64,000 nucleotides of DNA. Origin: Escherichia phage vB_EcoM_SA35RD. Made by a program: the position numbers and the translations under genes. Positions 4,392 through 45,138 of the stretch are shown here, piece after piece. The notes under the pieces were generated by a model that ran no database searches, was not told the DNA's origin, and saw only the letters and a list, made by a program, of their open reading frames with translations. Position 1 is the first letter of the stretch, and every line of letters starts with the position of its first letter. Where the stretch lies: the sequence record OL960577.1. One strand, written 5' to 3'.

Positions 4392-6080
4392 TTATGAAAC
4401 AGTCATTACCGTAAATCGTCCAACTTTGCTCATTTGAAGATGTTGTCCATAAGCTTGTGGGTCATGGTCTCTGTGACTAATTATAAACACGTTTGCATCG
4501 GTTAGAGAGTTAAGAATTGTTGAAATAGCTTTAATACCTTCAGAATCAGTCGCGGAATCCATGACTTCGTCCATAATTAATGTATTGATTCTAACACCAG
4601 AGACCTTTTCAGCAATATCTCGCCATGTAAACAACAACGCGATATCGATACGCGCTTTTTCGCCTTGACTAAATGAAGCATAACTGAACTCTTCACGGCC
4701 ACGTGATTTTATAGATTCATTGAATTCTTCGTCAATAGAAAACACGTAATCGGCTTCCATGATTTTAAGATAATGGTTAATCTGCTTATTGAACAAAGGC
4801 ACGTATTTTTTAATGATAGCACCTTTAATACCAGAATCTTTTAACATATCTGTGATAATACCACGATGGTATTTTTCAAGAACGATATCTGATTTTGTTT
4901 TAATGATTTTATCAAGTTCTTTTTGAAGCAAAGCTATCTCATCGGCATGGTCGATAAATTCCGCTGAGGCTTGTTCTATTGCAGCTTTAACTTTCTTAGC
5001 TTTATCAATAGTGGCAATCATTGCTTGTTTCTTGGTACGAATATCAGATGCAAGGTCCTGTTTAGTCTTAACATTAGCTCTATATTCGTCCACTAGGACA
5101 CTCAGATTATCTCTGTGGCAGGTAAGTTGCTCGAATGAGTGATTACATTCATGAAGCTTATCGGTAATCTTAGAGACAATAGGGTCACCCTGGTGCAACT
5201 GTGATGCGCAAGTAGGACATGTACCGCCATCATGATACATCTTAATAACTTTGTTATATGAGTCAATTTTAGATTTAATCAAGAATGCTTCTTGTCCGAT
5301 CTTGTTGAATGCCTCAGTAGGGTCTTCGTCAAGAACGATATTAAGTAGACGCTCGTTAGCTTCTTCAATTTCTGCTTTTAATGAACGAGCTTCTTTGGCT
5401 AGGTCGTCATACATATTCTGTAGACGCGCTACATTATCGCCAGATAATTTCTTTTGACGTTCGATATTCTCGTTATAAATCTTAATTTGTTGGATAATAC
5501 CATCTTTCTTGGCATCGAGAACTTGTCCCTGGGAATTAAGTTCTCGAACTTGAGACTTATTGATTTTATCCATTTCGGCGAGTGTGCCGACTTCTAAAAG
5601 GTCTTCGACAAGTTTTCTACGAGCAGGGGTGCTAAGAGCCATGAAAGGGGTATACCCTGCCGTCCCAAGCACAACGATTTGTTTAAAAGACGCGTATGAC
5701 ATTCCGATGCTACGTTCAAATTCTTCTTGGAAGTCACGACTGCTGGCAGATTCATCAAGACGAACACCGTCAACGGAGATTTCGAAAATATTGGGCTTTT
5801 GGCCTCGTTTAATGAAGTATTTTTTACCATCGAATTCCATCCAAAGCTCAACTAAGAGCTCTTTCTTGTTCGTGCTATTAATGATTTGTCCTTTCTTAAC
5901 ATCACGAAATGGTTTACCGAAAAGTCCGAAAGTAATGGCTTCTAACATCGTAGATTTACCACCGCCATTTTTACCAGTGATTAATGTCTTTTGGACTTTA
6001 TCTAATTGGATATCAATAGGATTCCCACCTACCGACATGATGTTTTGATAACGAACACGATTTAATTTAAATGATTTCAT
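4392..6080 (-). CDS. 46: recombination endonuclease subunit gp46 (SbcC/Rad50-like ATPase)
   Basis: 562 aa; Walker A GKNGGGKST, ABC signature region FSQGEKAR, Walker B LIMDEV, long coiled-coil middle. Confidence 0.9.
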   Translation of the reverse strand: MKSFKLNRVRYQNIMSVGGNPIDIQLDKVQKTLITGKNGGGKSTMLEAITFGLFGKPFRDVKKGQIINSTNKKELLVELWMEFDGKKYFIKRGQKPNIFEISVDGVRLDESASSRDFQEEFERSIGMSYASFKQIVVLGTAGYTPFMALSTPARRKLVEDLLEVGTLAEMDKINKSQVRELNSQGQVLDAKKDGIIQQIKIYNENIERQKKLSGDNVARLQNMYDDLAKEARSLKAEIEEANERLLNIVLDEDPTEAFNKIGQEAFLIKSKIDSYNKVIKMYHDGGTCPTCASQLHQGDPIVSKITDKLHECNHSFEQLTCHRDNLSVLVDEYRANVKTKQDLASDIRTKKQAMIATIDKAKKVKAAIEQASAEFIDHADEIALLQKELDKIIKTKSDIVLEKYHRGIITDMLKDSGIKGAIIKKYVPLFNKQINHYLKIMEADYVFSIDEEFNESIKSRGREEFSYASFSQGEKARIDIALLFTWRDIAEKVSGVRINTLIMDEVMDSATDSEGIKAISTILNSLTDANVFIISHRDHDPQAYGQHLQMSKVGRFTVMTVS

Positions 6081-13026: not shown

Positions 13027-14840
13027 TGGTGTTTAACCCTATGCATGATTTCTTTATTTTTGCCAAGATTAAATCCGCGTTCGTTCGGATTTCCCAAATA
13101 ACCACAAGTTCTTCTTATTGTGTTCATCTTTTTAGGGTCAGTTTCTCCGCAAACTGAACAAACAAATCCGTTTTCAGTAGGAGTCATTTCATGGGTACTT
13201 CCACATGTAAAACATTTATCTACTGGCATATTAACACCAAAATAATCTAAATGTTGTGCGGCATAATCCCATACAGCCTCAAGACCTTTTAAGTTATTTT
13301 TCATATCAGGAAGTTCAACATAAGAAATGTGTCCGCCAGTCGCAATGAAATGATATGGGGCTTCGCGAGAAATCTTTTCAAACGGAGTGATATTTTCTTC
13401 TACTGAAACATGGAAACTATTAGTGTACCAGCCTTTATCAGTAACATCCTTTACACTTCCATATTTTTCAGTATCAAGTTTACAGAAGCGATAACAAAGG
13501 TTTTCAGCAGGTGTAGAATACAAACTAAAAGCAAAACCGGTTCTTTCAGTCCACTGTTTAAGATGAGCATTCATTTTAGTTAAAATTTCTTGTCCAATAT
13601 CACGACCGACAAGAATATTCAATTCGTGAATACCAATGTATCCTAGGGACACTGAACTTCTACCGTTTTTAAATAACTCAATTATATCGTCATCAGGTTT
13701 AAGACGAACCCCGAATGCACCTTCTTGGTAAAGAATAGGAGCAACAGTCGCTTTAACTCCTTTTAAGGAACTAATTCTACACATCAAAGCTTCAAAACAC
13801 AAATCCATTCGTTCATTGAACAATTCGGCAAATTTCTGTTCATTGAATTGTGTTCCAATATAAGAATCTAACGCAATGCGAGGAAGATTCAGTGTTACAA
13901 CACCAAGATTATTGCGTCCATCAAGAATTTCATTACCAGTCGAATCTTTCCATACACTCAAGAAACTACGGCAACCCATTGGAGAAACTGGAACTGAAGA
14001 ACCAGTAATAGCTTTATTATTCTTAACCGAAATAATGTCAGGATACATTCTTTTGCTTGCACATTCTAACGCAAGTTGTTTAATATCATAGTTCGGATCA
14101 TCTTTATAAAGATTAACACCTTCTTCAACGAACATAACAAGCTTAGGGAAAATAGGAGTTATTCCATCACGACCAAGGCCTTTAATGCGGTTTTTAAGAA
14201 TTGCTTTCTGAATCATTCGTTCAGTCCAGTCGGTTCCTGTACCAAATGTAATTGTTACAAAAGGAGTCTGTCCGTTTGAACTAAAGAGAGTATTTACTTC
14301 ATATTCATAAGCTTGGAATGCATCGTATACGTCTTTTTCTGTTTTAGATTGAGCATAATTCAACGCATCAGCGATTTGCCATTTTTCTGCATCTTCAACA
14401 TGTTTAGCGTATGTACGTTTAACATAAGGAGAAAGAACTTTATCGACATTTGCAAATGTAGTTCCGCCATACTGATGTGAAGCAACTTGTGCAGTAATTT
14501 GTGCCATAATTGCAGTAGCAACACCAATCGATTTAGGCGTTTCAATTTGAGCATTGCCTAATTTAAATCCATTCTCAAGCATCCCCTTTAAATCGACTAA
14601 ACAGCAATTGGTAAACGGAAGAGCAGGAGAATAATCAATATCATGCATGTGGATAATTCCACTTTCATGCGCATTCATAATAAAAGACGGGACCGTATTT
14701 TTGGCAATGTGCTTAGACACAATACCAGCCATAAGGTCCCGTTGAGTTGGAAAAACACGAGAATCTTTATTAGCATTCTCGTTTAAAAGGTCTTTATTAG
14801 TTTTATGAATTAATCCTTCAATTTCTTTTTCAATTTTCAT
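13023..14840 (-). CDS. nrdD: anaerobic ribonucleoside-triphosphate reductase NrdD
   Basis: 605 aa; C-terminal Zn-ribbon CFTCGSTHEMTPTENGFVCSVCG and glycyl radical region RRTCGYLG; uninterrupted ORF. Confidence 0.9.
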   Translation of the reverse strand: MKIEKEIEGLIHKTNKDLLNENANKDSRVFPTQRDLMAGIVSKHIAKNTVPSFIMNAHESGIIHMHDIDYSPALPFTNCCLVDLKGMLENGFKLGNAQIETPKSIGVATAIMAQITAQVASHQYGGTTFANVDKVLSPYVKRTYAKHVEDAEKWQIADALNYAQSKTEKDVYDAFQAYEYEVNTLFSSNGQTPFVTITFGTGTDWTERMIQKAILKNRIKGLGRDGITPIFPKLVMFVEEGVNLYKDDPNYDIKQLALECASKRMYPDIISVKNNKAITGSSVPVSPMGCRSFLSVWKDSTGNEILDGRNNLGVVTLNLPRIALDSYIGTQFNEQKFAELFNERMDLCFEALMCRISSLKGVKATVAPILYQEGAFGVRLKPDDDIIELFKNGRSSVSLGYIGIHELNILVGRDIGQEILTKMNAHLKQWTERTGFAFSLYSTPAENLCYRFCKLDTEKYGSVKDVTDKGWYTNSFHVSVEENITPFEKISREAPYHFIATGGHISYVELPDMKNNLKGLEAVWDYAAQHLDYFGVNMPVDKCFTCGSTHEMTPTENGFVCSVCGETDPKKMNTIRRTCGYLGNPNERGFNLGKNKEIMHRVKHQ

Positions 14841-26144: not shown

Positions 26145-26155
26145 TGATAGATGCC

Positions 26156-26185
26156 AAAAAGCCCCAACCATAAGGAAGGGGCTAG
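26156..26185 (-). terminator. rho-independent terminator, copy 1 of a repeated hairpin element
   Basis: Minus strand GCCCC-TTCCTTATGGTT-GGGGC followed by TTTT. Confidence 0.55.
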
Positions 26186-31823: not shown

Positions 31824-32126
31824 TTATTTACCTTTAATTACTTTAGCTGCTTCGATAGCCGCTTGCTGAAGGTCATCCATAGACATACCGAATTTAGAAG
31901 CAAAGTTATCAATTTTCTTTTCGACAGCATTCAAAGGCTTGGCCTGTTTACCTTCATTAGCGCCAGGAAGAGCGAGAATACGCTCTTTGTCAATATAAAG
32001 GCTTACAAGTTTCTTACGGTCTTTATCGGACAAATCATGAAATGAATGGGCCTTTTTATTTATAGCGGCTTCTAATTTACCTGCACTCACTCGAGCTTCA
32101 GTAATAAATTCTTGATATGTTTTCAT
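31824..32126 (-). CDS. internal (capsid-targeted) protein, IPII-like
   Basis: N-terminal capsid targeting sequence MKTYQEFITE; 100 aa. Confidence 0.65.
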   Translation of the reverse strand: MKTYQEFITEARVSAGKLEAAINKKAHSFHDLSDKDRKKLVSLYIDKERILALPGANEGKQAKPLNAVEKKIDNFASKFGMSMDDLQQAAIEAAKVIKGK

Positions 32127-32151
32127 TTTGTTCCTATTGTTTTAATTTATG

Positions 32152-32466
32152 TTATTCTTTAGGGAAGTTTTTAGAGTATGCATCATAAAGTTTATTACCA
32201 ATACGGCGGAAGACTTTAGCTGCAAAACGGTTTTCAGGGTTTTTAATCATGATTTGCATCATGTAAGTTCCTGCATCCGAAAGAGCTTCTTCATAGTACC
32301 CATTAATTTCTTTAAGAGTCCTACGTTTACCACCAGGACCATCAACAGTAATTTTCCATTTACCTGTAGAAGTGCGGCTCGGTGGCTCAACTTGTTCAAT
32401 CCAAATATAACCACCTTCAACGCGTTGGTTGGCGGATTCTGCAATAAATTCTTTATACGTTTTCAT
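32152..32466 (-). CDS. internal (capsid-targeted) protein
   Basis: N-terminal MKTYKEFIAE; 104 aa. Confidence 0.6.
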   Translation of the reverse strand: MKTYKEFIAESANQRVEGGYIWIEQVEPPSRTSTGKWKITVDGPGGKRRTLKEINGYYEEALSDAGTYMMQIMIKNPENRFAAKVFRRIGNKLYDAYSKNFPKE

Positions 32467-32529
32467 TTTTGTTTCCTTGTTTGTTTTGATAGAGTAATTA
32501 TACCATATTAATACTTAAGCGTAAACAAT

Positions 32530-32790
32530 TTAAGCTTTACCGCCAGAAATAATTCCGAAGTTGTTAAAATCGTATCCAATATCGTCAACATCTACTTTAG
32601 GACTTGCTGCAACATAAGCAATTTCACTACGTTTTGCATAGGTGTTGATTTCTTTACCATCGCCACCTAAGAAAGAATACCCATTACGTTTTAATGAGCC
32701 AAAGTCTTCCGCATCACCAATGAAAGCTTTAACTTTAAATTTGGGGTCTTTGGCATCTGATTCAGCGATAAATTCTTGATACATTTTCAT
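32530..32790 (-). CDS. internal (capsid-targeted) protein
   Basis: N-terminal MKMYQEFIAE; 86 aa. Confidence 0.6.
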   Translation of the reverse strand: MKMYQEFIAESDAKDPKFKVKAFIGDAEDFGSLKRNGYSFLGGDGKEINTYAKRSEIAYVAASPKVDVDDIGYDFNNFGIISGGKA

Positions 32791-32796
32791 TTTTCC

Positions 32797-33210
32797 TTAG
32801 TAAATTGATTTACCATAGTATTTGTACCAAGTCGGACGTTGAGCAATTTTTTCATCTAAGCGTGCTTGACTTATCGCAATGGACGCTTCGGACGGGTCAT
32901 AATTATTACGAAATTCGGCAGGGATGTCGGAAATATCCTGGACTGTCGTGTCCTTGATTTTGAAACCACGTTTCAAGCATTCAGCGATTAGCTCGATTTG
33001 ACGTAAACGTAAAAATTCGAGTTTGTCGTAAAAGAATGTTACGTGACCTGTGCCTAAGATAAATGTTGGAGAGATTTTAAAATCCTTTACACGTTTACCG
33101 TTTTGAACATGTTTACGGACTGCACCAAATACGCGTGGTAATTCACGATACTCAGCCATAAGATGTTGGTCGGACAGTTCAGAAACAAGTGTTAAATTGA
33201 TACGAGTCAT
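32797..33210 (-). CDS. denV: endonuclease V (pyrimidine-dimer DNA glycosylase)
   Basis: [35 protein letters not shown] matches T4 DenV; start set to MTRIN. Confidence 0.9.
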
Positions 33211-33237
33211 AATTTCCTCCAAGTAGTTGATGAATGT

Positions 33238-33267
33238 ATAGTATCAAAACCCTTGGAGGAAGTAAAC
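33238..33267 (-). promoter_or_regulatory. early promoter cassette (-35 GTTTAC, -10 TACTAT) upstream of denV
   Basis: Read directly. Confidence 0.45.
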
Positions 33268-33268
33268 A

Positions 33269-33541
33269 CTATTTTTCTGAAGCGCCTGAAATATATTTTT
33301 CAAGACGTTGTTTCATCAGCGAGCCGTTCTTAGCGATTTCTTCTGGTTTATCGCACATACGCAACAAGGCTTCAAGCTTAGCGATATCGCTGGTACGTTC
33401 AAATTTGCGAGTATCTATCTTACTAGCAAGTTCAGAAATACGTGCTAATAGACTTTCAGCTTCAACCAAAGCTGCACCTAGCTTAGTTGCAAATGTGTCA
33501 GTAGCTTCGTTAAGAATAGATTCTGATAAAAATTCACTATA
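33269..33541 (-). CDS. internal (capsid-targeted) protein
   Basis: Track ORF 33269..33565; start set to [10 protein letters not shown]. Confidence 0.6.
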   Translation of the reverse strand, partial: YSEFLSESILNEATDTFATKLGAALVEAESLLARISELASKIDTRKFERTSDIAKLEALLRMCDKPEEIAKNGSLMKQRLEKYISGASEK

Positions 33542-33546
33542 TGTTT

Positions 33547-34035
33547 TCATATATACGCTTTCCAAGTTCCTGTTTTAAATGTTGAGATTACGCGTTTCGC
33601 GCGATTAGGTGTCTGACGATACCATTTAGATTGAGCTAGATTTACTGCCGCTTCATCCCAACGTTTCTGTTTAAGCATACGAAGAGAATTAGTAAAACCG
33701 GCGACTCCTGCTACACCCATTTGGAAGACCATATTGACCAATGCACACCGACGAACTGCATCTAAAGAATCATATACCGGTTTAAGTTTAGCATTACCCA
33801 AGATTCCGCGAACGGCTTTATCAACGTCTTCATTAAATAGCTTTTCAGCCTCATCAAGGGTAATTGTACCGTTGCATTTACGACCGATCATTCTGTCAAG
33901 TTCAGCTTTAGCTACGGCTAAAGACGGGTTCTTTGTTACCAAGTGGCCTATGCCAATCGTCCAAAAGCCTTCAGTGTCTTTGTATAAAGTCAGTCTAAGA
34001 CCTTCGTCATTACGAAGCATTTCAAATATATTCAT
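33547..34035 (-). CDS. e: lysozyme (endolysin) e
   Basis: [32 protein letters not shown] matches T4 lysozyme; catalytic Glu/Asp region present. Confidence 0.9.
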
Positions 34036-34528: not shown

Positions 34529-34769
34529 CTCGGTCCCATGATTTGGCCATTAATTCGGACATAAATTCTTCAATGCGCGTTTCTTTAGATGGACTTTCAC
34601 TATTAGAGACCGCAAGTTTGTAATCTGCAATAGGACAGAACATATCAAGATCCGTATTAAGGTCGTCTTTGATTTTTTCTTCTGACACATCTTTATCGTA
34701 TGTGTACAGATAACTATCACATGATTCTGATTTAATGTAAATTGCTATACTCATCTCAAATTCCTGCAT
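34518..34769 (-). CDS. hypothetical acidic protein (83 aa)
   Basis: Track ORF. Confidence 0.45.
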   Translation of the reverse strand: MQEFEMSIAIYIKSESCDSYLYTYDKDVSEEKIKDDLNTDLDMFCPIADYKLAVSNSESPSKETRIEEFMSELMAKSWDRDDE

Positions 34770-35242
34770 TCAGTAATAAAACATTCAACTTCGTTATTCT
34801 TGGCCTTTATCTTGTCTTTACGTTCCTGTAAACTACTTTTAACAAGATTAATAATGATGCCTACAGTACCTCCACCAATTATACCGCCAATTATACTTAC
34901 GATAGCAGATGCTAATAAGATAGCAATAATATCAACAAAACCGAAAGAACTCACCTTAGTACTAAAAAACCATACCGACGGTACAAATATAATCCATCCT
35001 GTTATCCATTGGCACTTATTGAAAAACTTTTCAAGATCAGCTTGAGTTGTTCGTATTACTTCATCGATAGGTTGATATCCATTAATGTATCTGTTCACGA
35101 TAATACCTGCTGGTTTGTCGATTTTAAATTCTTGGCAAATACGTTTCACTAAGTAGGATGGACATCCTGTCCAATCCACTGAATAGTACGAAATACCTTC
35201 ATTGCCGTCGTCAATATTAGACCAATATGTTTTGTTAATCAT
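34751..35242 (-). CDS. hypothetical membrane protein (163 aa), C-terminal ECFITECR tail
   Basis: Hydrophobic spans with GGIIGGG motif. Confidence 0.5.
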   Translation of the reverse strand: MINKTYWSNIDDGNEGISYYSVDWTGCPSYLVKRICQEFKIDKPAGIIVNRYINGYQPIDEVIRTTQADLEKFFNKCQWITGWIIFVPSVWFFSTKVSSFGFVDIIAILLASAIVSIIGGIIGGGTVGIIINLVKSSLQERKDKIKAKNNEVECFITECRNLR

Positions 35243-35929: not shown

Positions 35930-36235
35930 TTATTTTCCTCGACATTCTTTAATGAAATTTTCTAGATTGGTAGATTCAATAGCTTTTTTACGAGCTTCTG
36001 CGTGTTCTTCTTCGGACAATTTACGTTTATAATTGACCCAGACATTATGGTCGAAACCAGTCGTGGCATATAATAACAATGCTCCAACGAATAGCAAAAA
36101 CGGCGATAAGAATACAAAACCAGGAACACCATCCATATCGTAAGCCTTTTGTAATACTGCAACAGAAAGAGTTGCGTAAAAAGGTGATGCAAGTATTGTT
36201 AAAAGACCAATTCGATTGGTTTCTGTTAATTTCAT
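35930..36235 (-). CDS. hypothetical membrane protein (101 aa), C-terminal ENFIKECR tail
   Basis: Two hydrophobic spans. Confidence 0.5.
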   Translation of the reverse strand: MKLTETNRIGLLTILASPFYATLSVAVLQKAYDMDGVPGFVFLSPFLLFVGALLLYATTGFDHNVWVNYKRKLSEEEHAEARKKAIESTNLENFIKECRGK

Positions 36236-37864: not shown

Positions 37865-38062
37865 TTAGCAAGAATAACTAGATGATACCCAGCCTTGAAC
37901 AGTGATACTATTGTGGGATAATGAGATCGCGTCCTGGAGATTCAGACCTGCGTTATCTTCAATCCATAATGTAACTTCTTCGCGTTCTTCTGTTGCAATT
38001 TGGAACAGGTTTTCCAGAGCAGCTACTGCCGTACGTACAGCACAATCTAATTCACGAGACAT
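37865..38062 (-). CDS. hypothetical protein (65 aa), GWVSSSxxC-tail family
   Basis: Ends QGWVSSSYSC. Confidence 0.45.
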   Translation of the reverse strand: MSRELDCAVRTAVAALENLFQIATEEREEVTLWIEDNAGLNLQDAISLSHNSITVQGWVSSSYSC

Positions 38063-38071
38063 ATTGTTTCC

Positions 38072-38344
38072 TTAGCAAGTGTGAGAAGATGCGACCCAAC
38101 CACCAGTTTCGAGGCTCAGGTTGTAGTCGTATTGGTAAACGTCAGCCCATTCAGCATAGCCATTTTTTGTACAACGTTCAAGATCGGCTTTAAGATGTCC
38201 GGGTGAATGATAGGTTCCACCCATACCGTAAGCTGGATACAAGTCGAATGTTGTGTTTTGTTTATCAGCAATTTCTTTGGCAGCCTCAATAGCTGCATAG
38301 ATTTTTGCTACAGCTTCAGCCAGTTCGGTTTGTTCTTTAGACAT
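38072..38344 (-). CDS. hypothetical protein (90 aa), GWVSSSxxC-tail family
   Basis: Ends GGWVASSHTC. Confidence 0.45.
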   Translation of the reverse strand: MSKEQTELAEAVAKIYAAIEAAKEIADKQNTTFDLYPAYGMGGTYHSPGHLKADLERCTKNGYAEWADVYQYDYNLSLETGGWVASSHTC

Positions 38345-38353
38345 AATGATTCC

Positions 38354-38659
38354 TTAGCACAACGCAGAAGACGAAACCCAAGCACCTTCAGTAATAACGT
38401 AACCATTACCTTCACGCTTAACATCGCCACCATTATTTTCAATTTCATCTTTCATCCACTGGGATACGATTTCACCCTTAGGATAATAAGTACGACCGCT
38501 ACCATAATCACCTACAGAAAATGATACGGCATATTGGTCTGCGATCTTTGTTGCTTCTTCTTCGATACGTTCAGCTTGATTCAGAAGTTTATAAATTGCA
38601 TCTGAAGCGGATTTGGCATTATTAAACTCTGGTACTTTAATTTCAATAATCTTACTCAT
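38354..38659 (-). CDS. hypothetical protein (101 aa), GWVSSSxxC-tail family
   Basis: Ends EGAWVSSSALC. Confidence 0.45.
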   Translation of the reverse strand: MSKIIEIKVPEFNNAKSASDAIYKLLNQAERIEEEATKIADQYAVSFSVGDYGSGRTYYPKGEIVSQWMKDEIENNGGDVKREGNGYVITEGAWVSSSALC

Positions 38660-39015
38660 TTTCTACATTCCTTAATAAAGTTTTCGATTGTTTCATTTTC
38701 ACGTCTAGCTAGGAGTTCATTATAACTAATCATTTGAGAAGCGTAAACCTTTTTATTTTTCTTGTTATGGTTTATAAAATCGTAGTAAAAATAGACTACA
38801 GTACAAAATGATGCGATGGATGCAAAGGCTTGGGTATACCGTAAGTCCTGCCATTGGTCTGTGAATCCACCAGTGTTCCCTATAAATCCTAACACAACGC
38901 CGTCAATAAGAAATCCAACTAATCCAAAGGCAAATCCCATGCCAATACTCATAATAAAAATTAGAATGTTCTCACCAAGAGAAGGCCATACGGTTAAGAG
39001 TTGAGGCTTTTGCAT
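38656..39015 (-). CDS. hypothetical membrane protein (119 aa), C-terminal ENFIKECRK tail
   Basis: Two or three hydrophobic spans. Confidence 0.5.
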   Translation of the reverse strand: MQKPQLLTVWPSLGENILIFIMSIGMGFAFGLVGFLIDGVVLGFIGNTGGFTDQWQDLRYTQAFASIASFCTVVYFYYDFINHNKKNKKVYASQMISYNELLARRENETIENFIKECRK

Positions 39016-39419
39016 CTTATTTCCTTAACGAATTCCATAGCTTCTTCATATTCATACTTTTTAATAGCTTCATCATACTGAGCTTGGGCTTTTGCGCACT
39101 GAACTTTCCATTCTCTTAATCGGGCTCTGTGATGACGGCCTTGGTGCCAATATCCCACCCAATTAATAGGCATTAATAAAAACGGTACAATAAGTGGTGC
39201 GACGAACATTAATGAAAATGCTGCATCAGACGATATAACTTCACTAGAATCTAAAACAGCTCCTATAATCATAAAGATTAAAAATGCTAAAGCTAAAATA
39301 GGGCCAAATAGTACTTCATTTGGGATTAATTTACGCTTGTATTCATACGCCCAGGGCTTACTTGGCATGTATAGGGTTGGCTTTGACATATTCTCTACAT
39401 TCCATAATAAATTGCTCAA
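38994..39419 (-). CDS. hypothetical membrane protein (about 131-141 aa), C-terminal EFVKEIRCK tail
   Basis: Hydrophobic spans; start ambiguous (39419 or 39389). Confidence 0.45.
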   Translation of the reverse strand: MSNLLWNVENMSKPTLYMPSKPWAYEYKRKLIPNEVLFGPILALAFLIFMIIGAVLDSSEVISSDAAFSLMFVAPLIVPFLLMPINWVGYWHQGRHHRARLREWKVQCAKAQAQYDEAIKKYEYEEAMEFVKEIRCKSLNS

Positions 39420-39975
39420 GGATTAAATTGTTAGTGAAATTAGGACTAACAACCATAGTTTCATAAAGCGCATCAATAGCACTTAAAGCATCAACTCTTT
39501 TAAGCAAAGGCTTGCCTTCATACATAGTTTCAGAATCGACGATTAAAGTGAAGTAGTATTTTTTATTATTGGCCAGAACTTCTGTATCAATATAAAACAT
39601 GTTAGACCTTAAAAGCTTGTCTCTAAAGCCTACGTAATCATCTGAACGTTCACTGATATATTCCCATTCGGTGTTTAAACAACAAACAGACCACGTAGGA
39701 GCAACGAAATCAGTGAATCTAATATCATGGTCTGCAACTAGTTTAGCAATAGCTCCGATATCATGAATCATAATACCTGGGGCTAATAAAGATTTTCGGT
39801 TATTTGCATATTCAGTTGTCTCATAAGAAGACGACCAGTACCATTTACGTCCAGTTGCAACATATCGTAATGAATCAACTAAAGACGTAGGTGGATTTAC
39901 CTTATCTCGGAACTCTTCGAACATTGAGTCAATATCATTATTTTGGTTTCGCATGTTAACTCCTTTATTATCCAA
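39358..39975 (-). CDS. hypothetical protein (205 aa), C-terminal EQFIMECR motif
   Basis: Track ORF. Confidence 0.5.
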   Translation of the reverse strand: MDNKGVNMRNQNNDIDSMFEEFRDKVNPPTSLVDSLRYVATGRKWYWSSSYETTEYANNRKSLLAPGIMIHDIGAIAKLVADHDIRFTDFVAPTWSVCCLNTEWEYISERSDDYVGFRDKLLRSNMFYIDTEVLANNKKYYFTLIVDSETMYEGKPLLKRVDALSAIDALYETMVVSPNFTNNLILEQFIMECREYVKANPIHAK

Positions 39976-41843: not shown

Positions 41844-41875
41844 ATCTTTATGAAATATTTTTATGCCCTAGATAC

Positions 41876-41905
41876 CAAAAGGCCCCAACCATAAGGAAGG
41901 GGCAT
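41876..41905 (-). terminator. rho-independent terminator, copy 2 of repeated hairpin element
   Basis: Same GCCCC...GGGGC hairpin plus T-run as 26156..26185. Confidence 0.55.
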
Positions 41906-41909
41906 TCTA

Positions 41910-42374
41910 TTATTTAATTTGTTTAGCAGACCAGATACGGTCTTTAATAAGTTTTTGGATATCTTCAACATACTCAAGGCTATGAGCGTGAGGATTATCT
42001 TTGAAGCTATGTGCTCGTGCCAGTTTCTGGCCTTCTGTTTTGATTACTAAAAGCTCTTTAAGAATTGCTTCATACTTAGAAATAATTCCTTTGGCGATAT
42101 TTTTTTCTTGAGCTGCTTTAGGGTCTGTTTTTGGCGCAGGTGCTTTACCTGTAGCTTTCTGGAACAATTCACCTGATGCAGCTAGGCTTTTAAAAACTCG
42201 GCTAACAGTATTAGCATTAGTAAAACCTTCGGCTTTAAAATCTCTAATAAAACGGAAACGTTCTTCATCAGAGGCGTCTTTGTAAGAATATTTACCTGCT
42301 TGAATTGCTGCAATCGCAGCGGCTTTTACATCTGAACTAGATTGTTCAGTCAAAAATTCAGCGTATGATTTCAT
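41910..42374 (-). CDS. internal (capsid-targeted) protein (154 aa)
   Basis: N-terminal MKSYAEFLTE capsid-targeting-like leader. Confidence 0.55.
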   Translation of the reverse strand: MKSYAEFLTEQSSSDVKAAAIAAIQAGKYSYKDASDEERFRFIRDFKAEGFTNANTVSRVFKSLAASGELFQKATGKAPAPKTDPKAAQEKNIAKGIISKYEAILKELLVIKTEGQKLARAHSFKDNPHAHSLEYVEDIQKLIKDRIWSAKQIK

Positions 42375-42420
42375 GTTGCTTTTCCTAAGTTAATTAACTT
42401 ATCTATTTATTATTATGCCA

Positions 42421-42450
42421 AAAAGCCCCGACCTTTCGGAAGGGGCTAAG
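42421..42450 (-). terminator. rho-independent terminator, copy 3 (variant loop)
   Basis: Minus strand AGCCCC-TTCCGAAAGGTC-GGGGCT then TTTT. Confidence 0.55.
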
Positions 42451-43122: not shown

Positions 43123-43199
<77 letters not shown>

Positions 43200-43205
43200 A
43201 ATATA

Positions 43206-43279
43206 TGACCCAGACCAGATTCGAACTGGTAACCTTTCCCTTATGAGGGGACTGCTGCTAACCATTGAGCTACAGGGCC
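43206..43279 (-). tRNA. tRNA with CAU anticodon (Ile2/AUA-decoding or Met)
   Basis: Acceptor GGCCCTG/CTGGGTC (one U-U mismatch), anticodon loop CTCATAA, T-arm ACCAG-TTCGAAT-CTGGT; 3-bp D-stem. Confidence 0.6.
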
Positions 43280-44736: not shown

Positions 44737-44753
44737 TTTGTTTTGATAGGACT

Positions 44754-44783
44754 ACTATAACATAGTCCTATCGTGTTGTAAAC
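44754..44783 (-). promoter_or_regulatory. early promoter cassette (-35 GTTTAC, -10 TATAGT) with TAGGACTA inverted repeat
   Basis: Read directly. Confidence 0.5.
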
Positions 44784-44786
44784 TAC

Positions 44787-45074
44787 TTACAGAAGAGTTT
44801 TTGCAATAATTTTAAGCTGAGCTACAGAAATGTGCTTAGTTTTAAACAGTGCAGTCTCTTCAGCCGGAGAGATAACAATAGTAGCGCCATCTTTCTTAGC
44901 AGACCATCCATCCCCTAAGTAAACAGTACCTTTTACTTCTTCGCCGTCAACCAGACTAATCATTGGTTTACCCTCACGTCCTTTATTTGCTTTAATAACT
45001 TCGGAAGTAAGGGTTGCTTCGGTTAGAGTAGAAACGTTAGCATCAGGTGATATAAATTCTTTATAGGTTTTCAT
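44787..45074 (-). CDS. ipI: internal protein I (IPI-like)
   Basis: 95 aa; MKTYKEFIS leader; position next to 57B as in T4; body resembles IPI as I recall it. Confidence 0.7.
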   Translation of the reverse strand: MKTYKEFISPDANVSTLTEATLTSEVIKANKGREGKPMISLVDGEEVKGTVYLGDGWSAKKDGATIVISPAEETALFKTKHISVAQLKIIAKTLL

Positions 45075-45108
45075 TTTATTTCCTTGAGGTCGTTTATTTG
45101 ATAGGATG

Positions 45109-45138
45109 ATAGTAACACGTCATCATCCTTATGTAAAC
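45109..45138 (-). promoter_or_regulatory. early promoter cassette (-35 GTTTAC, -10 TACTAT) upstream of ipI
   Basis: Read directly. Confidence 0.5.

Follow-up and report, generated by a model that had tools for sequence, protein, structure and literature searches.

Six genes with predicted capsid-targeting leaders in Escherichia phage vB_EcoM_SA35RD, including a candidate internal-protein family beside the tRNA genes

Introduction

Polymorphic internal proteins carrying a common leader were reportedly described in T-even phages by Repoila et al. in 1994, as later papers attribute it. According to the literature on T4, its internal proteins are packaged, cleaved and ejected into the host together with the DNA. 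Here we examine six open reading frames (ORFs) with leaders of this type, named ipA to ipF, in a stretch of 64,000 nucleotides (nt) from Escherichia phage vB_EcoM_SA35RD (sequence record OL960577.1). This whole stretch is referred to as the window, and all positions are counted from its first letter.

The leader has been dissected by mutagenesis in T4, where targeting depends critically on positions 4 and 7, and processing on positions 8 and 10 (PMC9026906). The first ten residues of IPIII are enough to load proteins, including foreign ones, into the T4 head, and the prohead protease gp21 cleaves after the motif L/I-x-E; the genes for gp21 and gp22 belong to the core genes of all T4-related phages (PMC9026906). 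Mutants of T4 IPIII show slower head assembly and smaller bursts (PMC9026906).

The known function of these proteins is anti-restriction. IPI*, the mature form of IPI, blocks the GmrSD type IV restriction enzyme of strain CT596, and Silas et al. 2025 reported that Ip1, Ip2 and Ip3 each inhibit a different GmrSD, with IPII (Ip2) blocking the GmrSD/BrxU of ECOR21 (PMC12373910). IPIII is required on strain ECOR17, and IPIII expressed by the host without its leader still rescues infection (PMC9391042). The DNA of phage RB69 carries arabinosyl-hydroxymethylcytosine; GmrSD cuts this DNA, and RB69 IPI protects it (PMC6024577). Shuffling of ip cassettes among T4-like phages has also been proposed (PMC4122927). 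The Dar proteins of phage P1 follow a similar strategy, being head-loaded anti-restriction proteins delivered with the DNA; however, the proteins and their packaging route are unrelated to the internal proteins, and Dar acts on type I restriction.

Results

Six leaders in the window

A sequence-only reading of this stretch had proposed that six ORFs begin with the capsid-targeting leader pattern of T4. A six-frame scan of the window with a relaxed leader pattern bore this out, returning exactly six matches, each at the start of an ORF and all on the minus strand. The six genes are as follows (aa, amino acids).

31824-32126, minus strand: ipA, IPII orthologue, 100 aa; 93% identity to T4 IPII over its full length (100/100)
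32152-32466, minus strand: ipB, Ip10, 104 aa; 95% (92/97 residues, E 7e-69) to Ip10 of Enterobacteria phage Pol, CAA84455
32530-32790, minus strand: ipC, internal head protein of the RB69ORF125c type, 86 aa; phrog_2667 'internal head protein', 1.8e-20
33269-33550, minus strand: ipD, Ip5-like internal head protein, 93 aa; 48% over 84 residues, E 2e-24, to the UniRef-named Ip5 of T6
41910-42374, minus strand: ipE, leader-bearing basic protein, 154 aa; phrog_2280 'unknown function', 1.4e-53
44787-45074, minus strand: ipF, IPI orthologue, 95 aa; 87% to T4 IPI

The fourth gene had initially been given a start at 33541, which is wrong; its start lies at 33550, where its start codon and the stop of the lysozyme gene e overlap in the sequence ATGA. 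The pattern MK.Y.EF[IL] occurred six times, whereas residue frequencies predict 0.002 occurrences, and it was absent from 200 shuffles. A position-specific leader score built on 26 known leaders gave 24-32 bits for the six ORFs and -4 for the next best of the 658 candidate starts scored in the window, and no further degenerate leader was found among them. A GGA-type ribosome site is present 6-9 nt upstream of each ORF. That the leaders are chance matches, or that the ORFs are not real genes, could be argued from their small size only, and we regard it as practically out of the question. It is refuted by these statistics, by the position of all six on the coding strand with ribosome sites, and by conservation: for each ORF there are either homologues in 188 to more than 500 phage records or an identical entry in the protein collection.

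The targeting residues Tyr4 and Phe7 are present in all six leaders. The motif L/I-x-E occupies residues 8-10 in five of the proteins (ITE, IAE, IAE, LSE and LTE, from ipA to ipE), and residues 17-19 (LTE) in ipF. The six leaders can thus be read, from their residues, as T4 capsid-targeting sequences, as had been claimed. The accompanying statement that all six leaders have a glutamate at position 10 has to be corrected, as the sixth leader, MKTYKEFISP, has Pro10 and its sole L/I-x-E motif is LTE ending at residue 19. Past the first approximately 11 residues, the bodies of the six proteins are mutually unrelated, with the exception of a weak similarity between the 154-aa ipE and IPII over residues 1-43.

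Database searches placed the six at different distances from described proteins. PHROG families named 'internal head protein' or 'internal virion protein' cover four of the six ORFs. A Pfam scan of the six matched IPI_T4 only, besides weak leader-only matches to DUF7412, and an NCBIfam scan of the six gave no match. A sequence search of the PDB with the six found a solved relative for IPI alone. The Ip numbers used here were taken indirectly from database names. Taken together, we consider it very likely that the six ORFs are genuine leader-bearing internal-protein genes of a known kind, representing one instance of the polymorphic palette of T4-type phages. Like the T-even palette of Ip4 to Ip10, they combine unrelated small bodies with a conserved leader and lie largely in slots of cassette exchange, at e/denV and at 57B/tRNA.4.

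The similarity of the leaders in DNA, 17-26 of 30 nt among the six ORFs, also bears on a different explanation, in which leader and ribosome site persist mainly as a handle for recombination and some of the ORFs encode ordinary early cytoplasmic proteins that are not packaged. Early-type promoters upstream of ipB and ipF, the shuffling proposed for ip cassettes (PMC4122927) and a homologue of ipD in RB69 that has lost Glu6, Ile8 and Glu10 and retains an intact body would all fit such a handle. However, positions 4, 7 and 8 and the L/I-x-E motif are intact in 6/6 leaders, whereas synonymous and neighbouring positions vary. The leader of ipE is kept in four genera even though the DNA has diverged so far that only protein-level searches find the homologues, and in T4 ten leader residues suffice to package foreign proteins (PMC9026906). 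Since the leaders retain their functional residues despite divergence of the DNA, we judge persistence as a recombination handle to be very unlikely, and favor leaders maintained for capsid targeting.

Orthologues of IPI and IPII

The first and last ORFs had been called IPII-like and IPI-like, and both assignments hold. ipA belongs to phrog_7857 'internal virion protein' (4.5e-55) and to a 90% cluster named IpII or internal protein II. Its leader MKTYQEFITE, of the same type as in T4 IPII, contains the sole L/I-x-E site of the protein, with a predicted cut after Glu10 that would leave a mature form of 90 aa with an isoelectric point (pI) of 9.7. The gene order differs from T4, which reads e-ipIII-ipII-denV; in the window the order is e-ipD-denV-ipC-ipB-ipA, with ipA last. 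Activity of ipA against GmrSD is predicted from its T4 orthologue.

ipF carries the leader MKTYKEFISPDANVSTLTE, with MKTYKEFISP at residues 1-10. A predicted cut after Glu19 would release a 76-aa IPI*, and residues 20-95 match positions 1-76/76 of the Pfam family PF11634 IPI_T4 (5.8e-50; 167.6 bits against a cut-off of 25) as well as PDB 2JUB, the solved IPI* structure (2.2e-41). ipF resembles T4 IPI in length, in the two-part 19-residue propeptide ending in LTE, in the 76-residue mature part and in its slot beside 57B. It differs by five substitutions in IPI* and by Pro10 in place of the usual glutamate, although T4 IPI also lacks Glu10. In addition, the DNA of the window phage is presumably arabinosylated, whereas that of T4 is glucosylated. 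Mature ipF is only one residue from RB69 IPI*. As RB69 IPI* is reported to protect RB69 from GmrSD, we infer that ipF inhibits a GmrSD type IV restriction enzyme.

Two early-type promoter-like sites identified by a consensus scan flank ipF.

45103-45137, minus strand: TTTACA-17-TACTAT, upstream of ipF, with an embedded perfect 8-bp hairpin
44745-44782, minus strand: TTTACA-17-TATAGT, immediately downstream of ipF, with an embedded perfect 10-bp hairpin

These hairpin promoters resemble the PeSL cassette borders proposed to mediate shuffling of T4-like genes (PMC4122927).

Relatives of Ip10, Ip5 and an internal head protein family

The remaining four ORFs had been described as having unrelated bodies, and as therefore new. 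The first part is correct with respect to T4 IPI, IPII and IPIII, but three of the four belong to families already named internal proteins. Homology of the bodies to characterised internal proteins, named beforehand as evidence against novelty, was indeed found for ipB (Ip10) and ipD (Ip5), and was not found for ipE.

ipB has the leader MKTYKEFIAE with a predicted cut after Glu10, leaving a mature form of 94 aa with pI 9.6. It shares one 90% cluster with Ip10 of phage Pol, is 72% identical to the gene annotated ip10 in VR7, and falls in phrog_3966. The Pol sequence was deposited in the 1990s. A structure prediction for Ip10, made from three sequences, had a mean predicted local distance difference test (pLDDT) of 47, and the model was unusable. 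One further promoter-like element, a consensus match only, precedes the gene.

32497-32525, minus strand: early-type promoter-like site TTTACG-17-TATAAT upstream of ipB

ipC begins with MKMYQEFIAE and would give a mature form of 76 aa with pI 5.2. Its family comprises 216 phage records and bears the RefSeq name internal head protein in ST0, RB69 and VR7. We found no relative of ipC in Pfam, NCBIfam or PDB, and no Ip number for the ORF125c-type family in database names.

ipD contains LSE at residues 8-10 and a second potential cleavage site, LNE15, with a mature pI of 6.3. It falls in phrog_3499 'internal head protein' (2.1e-46) and is the counterpart of RB69ORF127c. Judged by sequence similarity, ipD is a homologue of Ip5 rather than a close orthologue, and the loci differ as well, ipD sitting in the e/denV locus and T6 Ip5 in the 57B locus. 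The RB69 copy of ipD (4923-5204) has an intact body behind the degenerate leader MKTYMNFYQNLSLNE. In the window, ipD occupies the slot directly downstream of e, where T4 has ipIII, and is unrelated to IPIII. The window contains leaders of the same type as that of T4 IPIII, but the IPIII body is absent: none of the six aligns with T4 IPIII past the leader, and tblastn of the six against the T4 region gave, at ipIII, only leader-length matches.

A leader-bearing family beside the tRNA genes

ipE is the only one of the six that belongs to a family no source labels as internal protein; among the ORFs proposed as new, it is thus the one that annotation has not recognised. Its family comprises 510 phage records, each listed row reading hypothetical protein or none. 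ipE together with its Tequatrovirus and ST0-type relatives forms three 90% clusters with 373 members, for which all names shown are hypothetical or uncharacterised. Its position is also distinct. Five of the six genes lie in the two loci that are classical for T4-type internal proteins, the e/denV cluster and 57B/tRNA.4, whereas ipE alone occupies a third site, with the e.x genes on one side and the tRNA cluster on the other.

The leader of ipE is MKSYAEFLTE, and the mature protein has a pI of 9.6 and a GKAPAPKTDPKAAQEK linker. Tequatrovirus homologues are 76-79% identical, and leaders of the same type are found in Tequatrovirus, Jiaodavirus and Tegunavirus (MKSYAQFLNE, MKFKEFLAE and MLEYSEFLKE), so that with Mosigvirus the leader is kept in four genera. 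In ST0, the tRNA-side slot holds a 208-aa relative of ipE, the sixth such gene of that phage, with the variant leader MYTFNEFLAE and a long histone-H1-like Pro/Lys/Ala linker. The window and ST0 proteins are approximately 24% identical. Both ipE (E 1.6e-17) and the ST0-type protein (E 3e-14) are linked to an intermediate sequence, which indicates that a single fast-diverging family fills the tRNA-side slot. An exhaustive HMMER search with ipE gave eight representatives among 1.8 billion proteins, all of which, except for one short fragment, look like family members. The family is thus narrow, and the search gave no remote functional link.

Structure prediction and fold search, suggested as a check by the sequence-only reading, were usable for ipE and found no fold relative outside its own kind. 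In the AlphaFold2 model (mean pLDDT 75), a helical bundle at the N-terminus is followed by a Lys/Pro/Ala linker and, at the C-terminus, by a helical hairpin. Foldseek against the PDB returned nothing below E = 2, and in BFVD the matches were two proteins of the ipE family itself and, marginally, an uncharacterised protein of Serratia phage PS2. The fold therefore gives no functional clue.

The surroundings of ipE suggest how the gene is gained or lost. Three elements flank it, the late-promoter-like one being a consensus match only (7/8 to TATAAATA).

42415-42446, no strand assigned: 32-nt GC-hairpin plus T-run element, upstream copy, direct repeat family D1; also a terminator-like site
41872-41903, no strand assigned: 32-nt GC-hairpin plus T-run element, downstream copy, direct repeat family D1
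42404-42411, minus strand: late-promoter-like AATAAATA, 37 nt upstream of the ipE start

The two repeats are 81% identical and spaced by 543 nt. Phage AR1 has two identical copies of the 32-nt repeat around its ipE homologue, and T4 has, between e.8 and rnaC, a single copy at the empty ipE site, whose flanks match the outer flanks of AR1 at 56/60 and 47/50 positions. The difference in T4 thus amounts to the gene and exactly one repeat copy, and the lack of the ipE family there is best read as a clean, repeat-bounded indel. By its layout, ipE is a self-contained cassette. A third copy of the element, with four mismatches to the copy at 42415-42446, is present at 26151-26182, approximately 16 kb away.

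The basic mature ipE with its linker, and the histone-H1-like linker of its ST0 counterpart, would also suit a mainly structural role, in which some of the four uncharacterised proteins, above all ipE, serve as DNA counter-ions or aid head assembly or ejection, as long proposed for IPIII. The conservation of the ipE family across several genera, unlike the swapped slots, points the same way, as do the assembly and burst defects of T4 IPIII mutants (PMC9026906) when set beside the lack of IPIII in the window. Nevertheless, T4 lacks the family through a clean indel, and the family is therefore dispensable for head assembly. IPIII itself proved to be a GmrSD inhibitor, and the ipE family diverges fast from the window to ST0, a pattern typical of arms-race genes. 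A mainly structural role, although a fair alternative for ipE, is unlikely in our view, and an injected protein that acts in the host is the preferred interpretation. Specifically, the chances appear even that ipE represents a widespread injected head-protein family unrecognised as such, with a third ip locus beside the tRNA genes and a target outside the coverage of IPI, IPII and IPIII. If so, classical T4 biochemistry and current annotation would have missed the family because it is absent from T4.

Proteome data are available for a homologue. The product g140 of Yersinia phage fD1, 76% identical to ipE, was particle-associated according to liquid chromatography coupled to tandem mass spectrometry at a strict threshold in a noisy preparation, together with the IPI homologue g146 and with g129 (157 aa, 'head protein'), which occupies the slot of AR1 Ip4. 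For packaging of the ipE family, this proteome was downgraded from strong to weak support, since roughly half of the genes nearby scored as well, as did DenV, lysozyme and NudE.

Further members of the family were noted elsewhere. The Tegunavirus Yersinia phage fHe-Yen9-01 has two adjacent ones, gp154 and gp153 (regions 877-1992 and 155-313 noted), with leaders of the form MLxYxEFLKE, and nearby a 52-aa ORF with the canonical leader MKTYIEFINE. The metagenome protein P0009 (94 aa) has a tRNA.3-like N-terminal part, and its last 32 residues are nearly identical to the ipE C-terminus, which suggests a chimera formed by recombination between neighbouring genes or an assembly artefact.

The same slots in related phages

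The closest genomes to the window are those of the Mosigvirus RB69/JS09 group, namely AV110, ST0, JS09 and Bas47 (AlbertHofmann), which match at approximately 96-97% nucleotide identity in several pieces, and hundreds of T4-type phage genomes match the region. The window phage can accordingly be placed, by genome similarity, in Mosigvirus (RB69/JS09 group) as an RB69-like T4-type phage.

In AV110 and Bas47, both in GenBank, all six genes recur in identical order with 96-100% protein identity, so that the set as such was already known. Whether it is expanded, as had also been suggested, depends on the comparison. T4 has three leader-bearing genes in the homologous stretch, and relative to T4 the set is larger. 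It is not expanded relative to ST0, with five leader genes and the variant sixth described above, to RB69, with at least seven leader-bearing genes in the homologous stretch, or to VR7, with approximately eight.

The contents of the slots differ among the window, ST0, mogra, RB69, VR7, AR1 and T4. ST0 has a different 87-aa protein in the IPI slot, and phage mogra has an IpIII-like 192-aa gene in the slot of the window Ip10. In RB69, the tRNA-side slot gene ORF149c overlaps ORF148c (13429-13991) and may be a frameshifted longer protein. The ip genes thus appear to behave as exchangeable cassettes, in slots bordered by promoter/hairpin or terminator-hairpin repeats. Compared with the PeSL cassettes (Arbiol 2010; Comeau 2014), ipF is similarly flanked by early promoters of the form TTTACA-N17-TAnnnT with short perfect hairpins, and ipE is bracketed by hairpin repeats whose single copy in the empty T4 site is as expected of repeat-mediated gain or loss. 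In contrast to PeSL cassettes, the hairpins around ipF lie inside the promoter spacer and not upstream of it, and the repeats around ipE are terminator-like and not promoter-bearing.

Neighbouring genes

The gene order on the minus strand of the window is colinear with T4 and reads regB, vs genes, ip cluster with denV, e, nudE, e.x genes, tRNAs, tRNA.2-4, ipI, 57B, 57A and gene 1. The window has two tRNA genes only, at 43123-43199 and 43206-43279 (Arg-TCT and one with a CAT anticodon), like RB69, whereas T4 has eight there. In the Bas47 record, the tRNA with the CAT anticodon is labelled Ile (ATA) and not Met.

Two groups of neighbouring ORFs share C-terminal motifs. Three tandem minus-strand ORFs (37865-38062, 38072-38344 and 38354-38659; 65, 90 and 101 aa) have a common C-terminal W-V-[S/A]-S-S-x-x-C followed by the stop and look like paralogues. 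Five adjacent e.2-e.5-like minus-strand ORFs (34751-35242, 35930-36235, 38656-39015, 38994-39419 and 39358-39975) share F-[I/V]-x-E-[C/I]-R near the C-terminus. In several of these ORFs, the ribosome site of the next gene and its overlapping ATGA start fall within the codons of this motif (for example, AAGGAATGTAGAAAATGA), so that translational coupling may constrain the motif at the RNA level.

Discussion

On the basis of the T4 literature, the route of these proteins can be outlined as follows. Each would be made with an N-terminal capsid-targeting sequence of about ten residues, in which Tyr4 and Phe7 serve targeting and Ile/Leu8 and Glu10 serve processing, and the leader would anchor it to the prohead's scaffolding core. 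gp21 would then cut after L/I-x-E, at Glu10 in five of the proteins and at Glu19 in IPI, leaving a mature protein of 8-16 kDa in the head with the DNA. Ejected together with the DNA, it could act before any phage gene expression. The mature forms would begin with Ala11 (ipA), Ser11 (ipB, ipC and ipD, or Ala16 for ipD), Gln11 (ipE) and Ala20 (ipF). GmrSD-type nucleases would be the targets of the IPI and IPII orthologues, ipF and ipA, and the other four would most likely each neutralise a different first-line host defence. Variants of modification-dependent nucleases are the leading candidate targets of ipB, ipC, ipD and ipE, because Mosigvirus DNA carries arabinosyl-hydroxymethylcytosine. Leaders, cleavage motifs, family assignments, slot polymorphism and flanking repeats were observed here directly. 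Packaging of these particular six proteins we infer from T4.

Several observations weigh against this interpretation. The phage is known here from its sequence, so that packaging, cleavage and injection are carried over from the T4 literature, and genes 21 and 22, for the protease gp21 and the scaffold gp22, fall outside the 64-kb window. The elements upstream of the genes are mostly early-type promoters, and the late-promoter matches are weak, with one mismatch each. Whereas the classical internal proteins are basic, ipC and ipD in their mature forms are acidic to neutral, and the leader of the RB69 ipD homologue (MKTYMNFYQN) is so degenerate that leader function may not persist everywhere. 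The fD1 proteome is noisy, comprising 113/277 gene products and 672 host proteins, with DenV, lysozyme and NudE among its proteins. Finally, when Ip4 to Ip10, including Ip10, were set against further active GmrSD variants in 2025, nothing reproducible was obtained (PMC12373910); the phages in those assays were T2, T4 and T6, whose DNA carries glucosyl-hydroxymethylcytosine. Considering both sides, the proposal that all four remaining proteins, ipB, ipC, ipD and ipE, are anti-defence factors is about evenly poised.

Neither the phenomenon nor the exact gene set is new, and five of the six families were known as well. An anti-defence function is likewise the accepted view of this gene class, and the targets of the T4 IPI and IPII orthologues are known. 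These findings leave the accepted picture of T4-type internal proteins unchanged. Their yield is the mapping of the six genes to families, two of them with orthologues of defined target and four without. As the phage Bas47 of the BASEL collection carries the identical set, it can be used for testing the six. The ipE family is common among T4-like phages of Escherichia and Shigella, and annotation pipelines never label it an internal protein. Injected internal proteins act before phage gene expression, and the survival of T-even phages under type IV restriction in wild E. coli is now known to depend on them. A full inventory of these proteins is of value when the host range of therapeutic T4-like phages is to be predicted.

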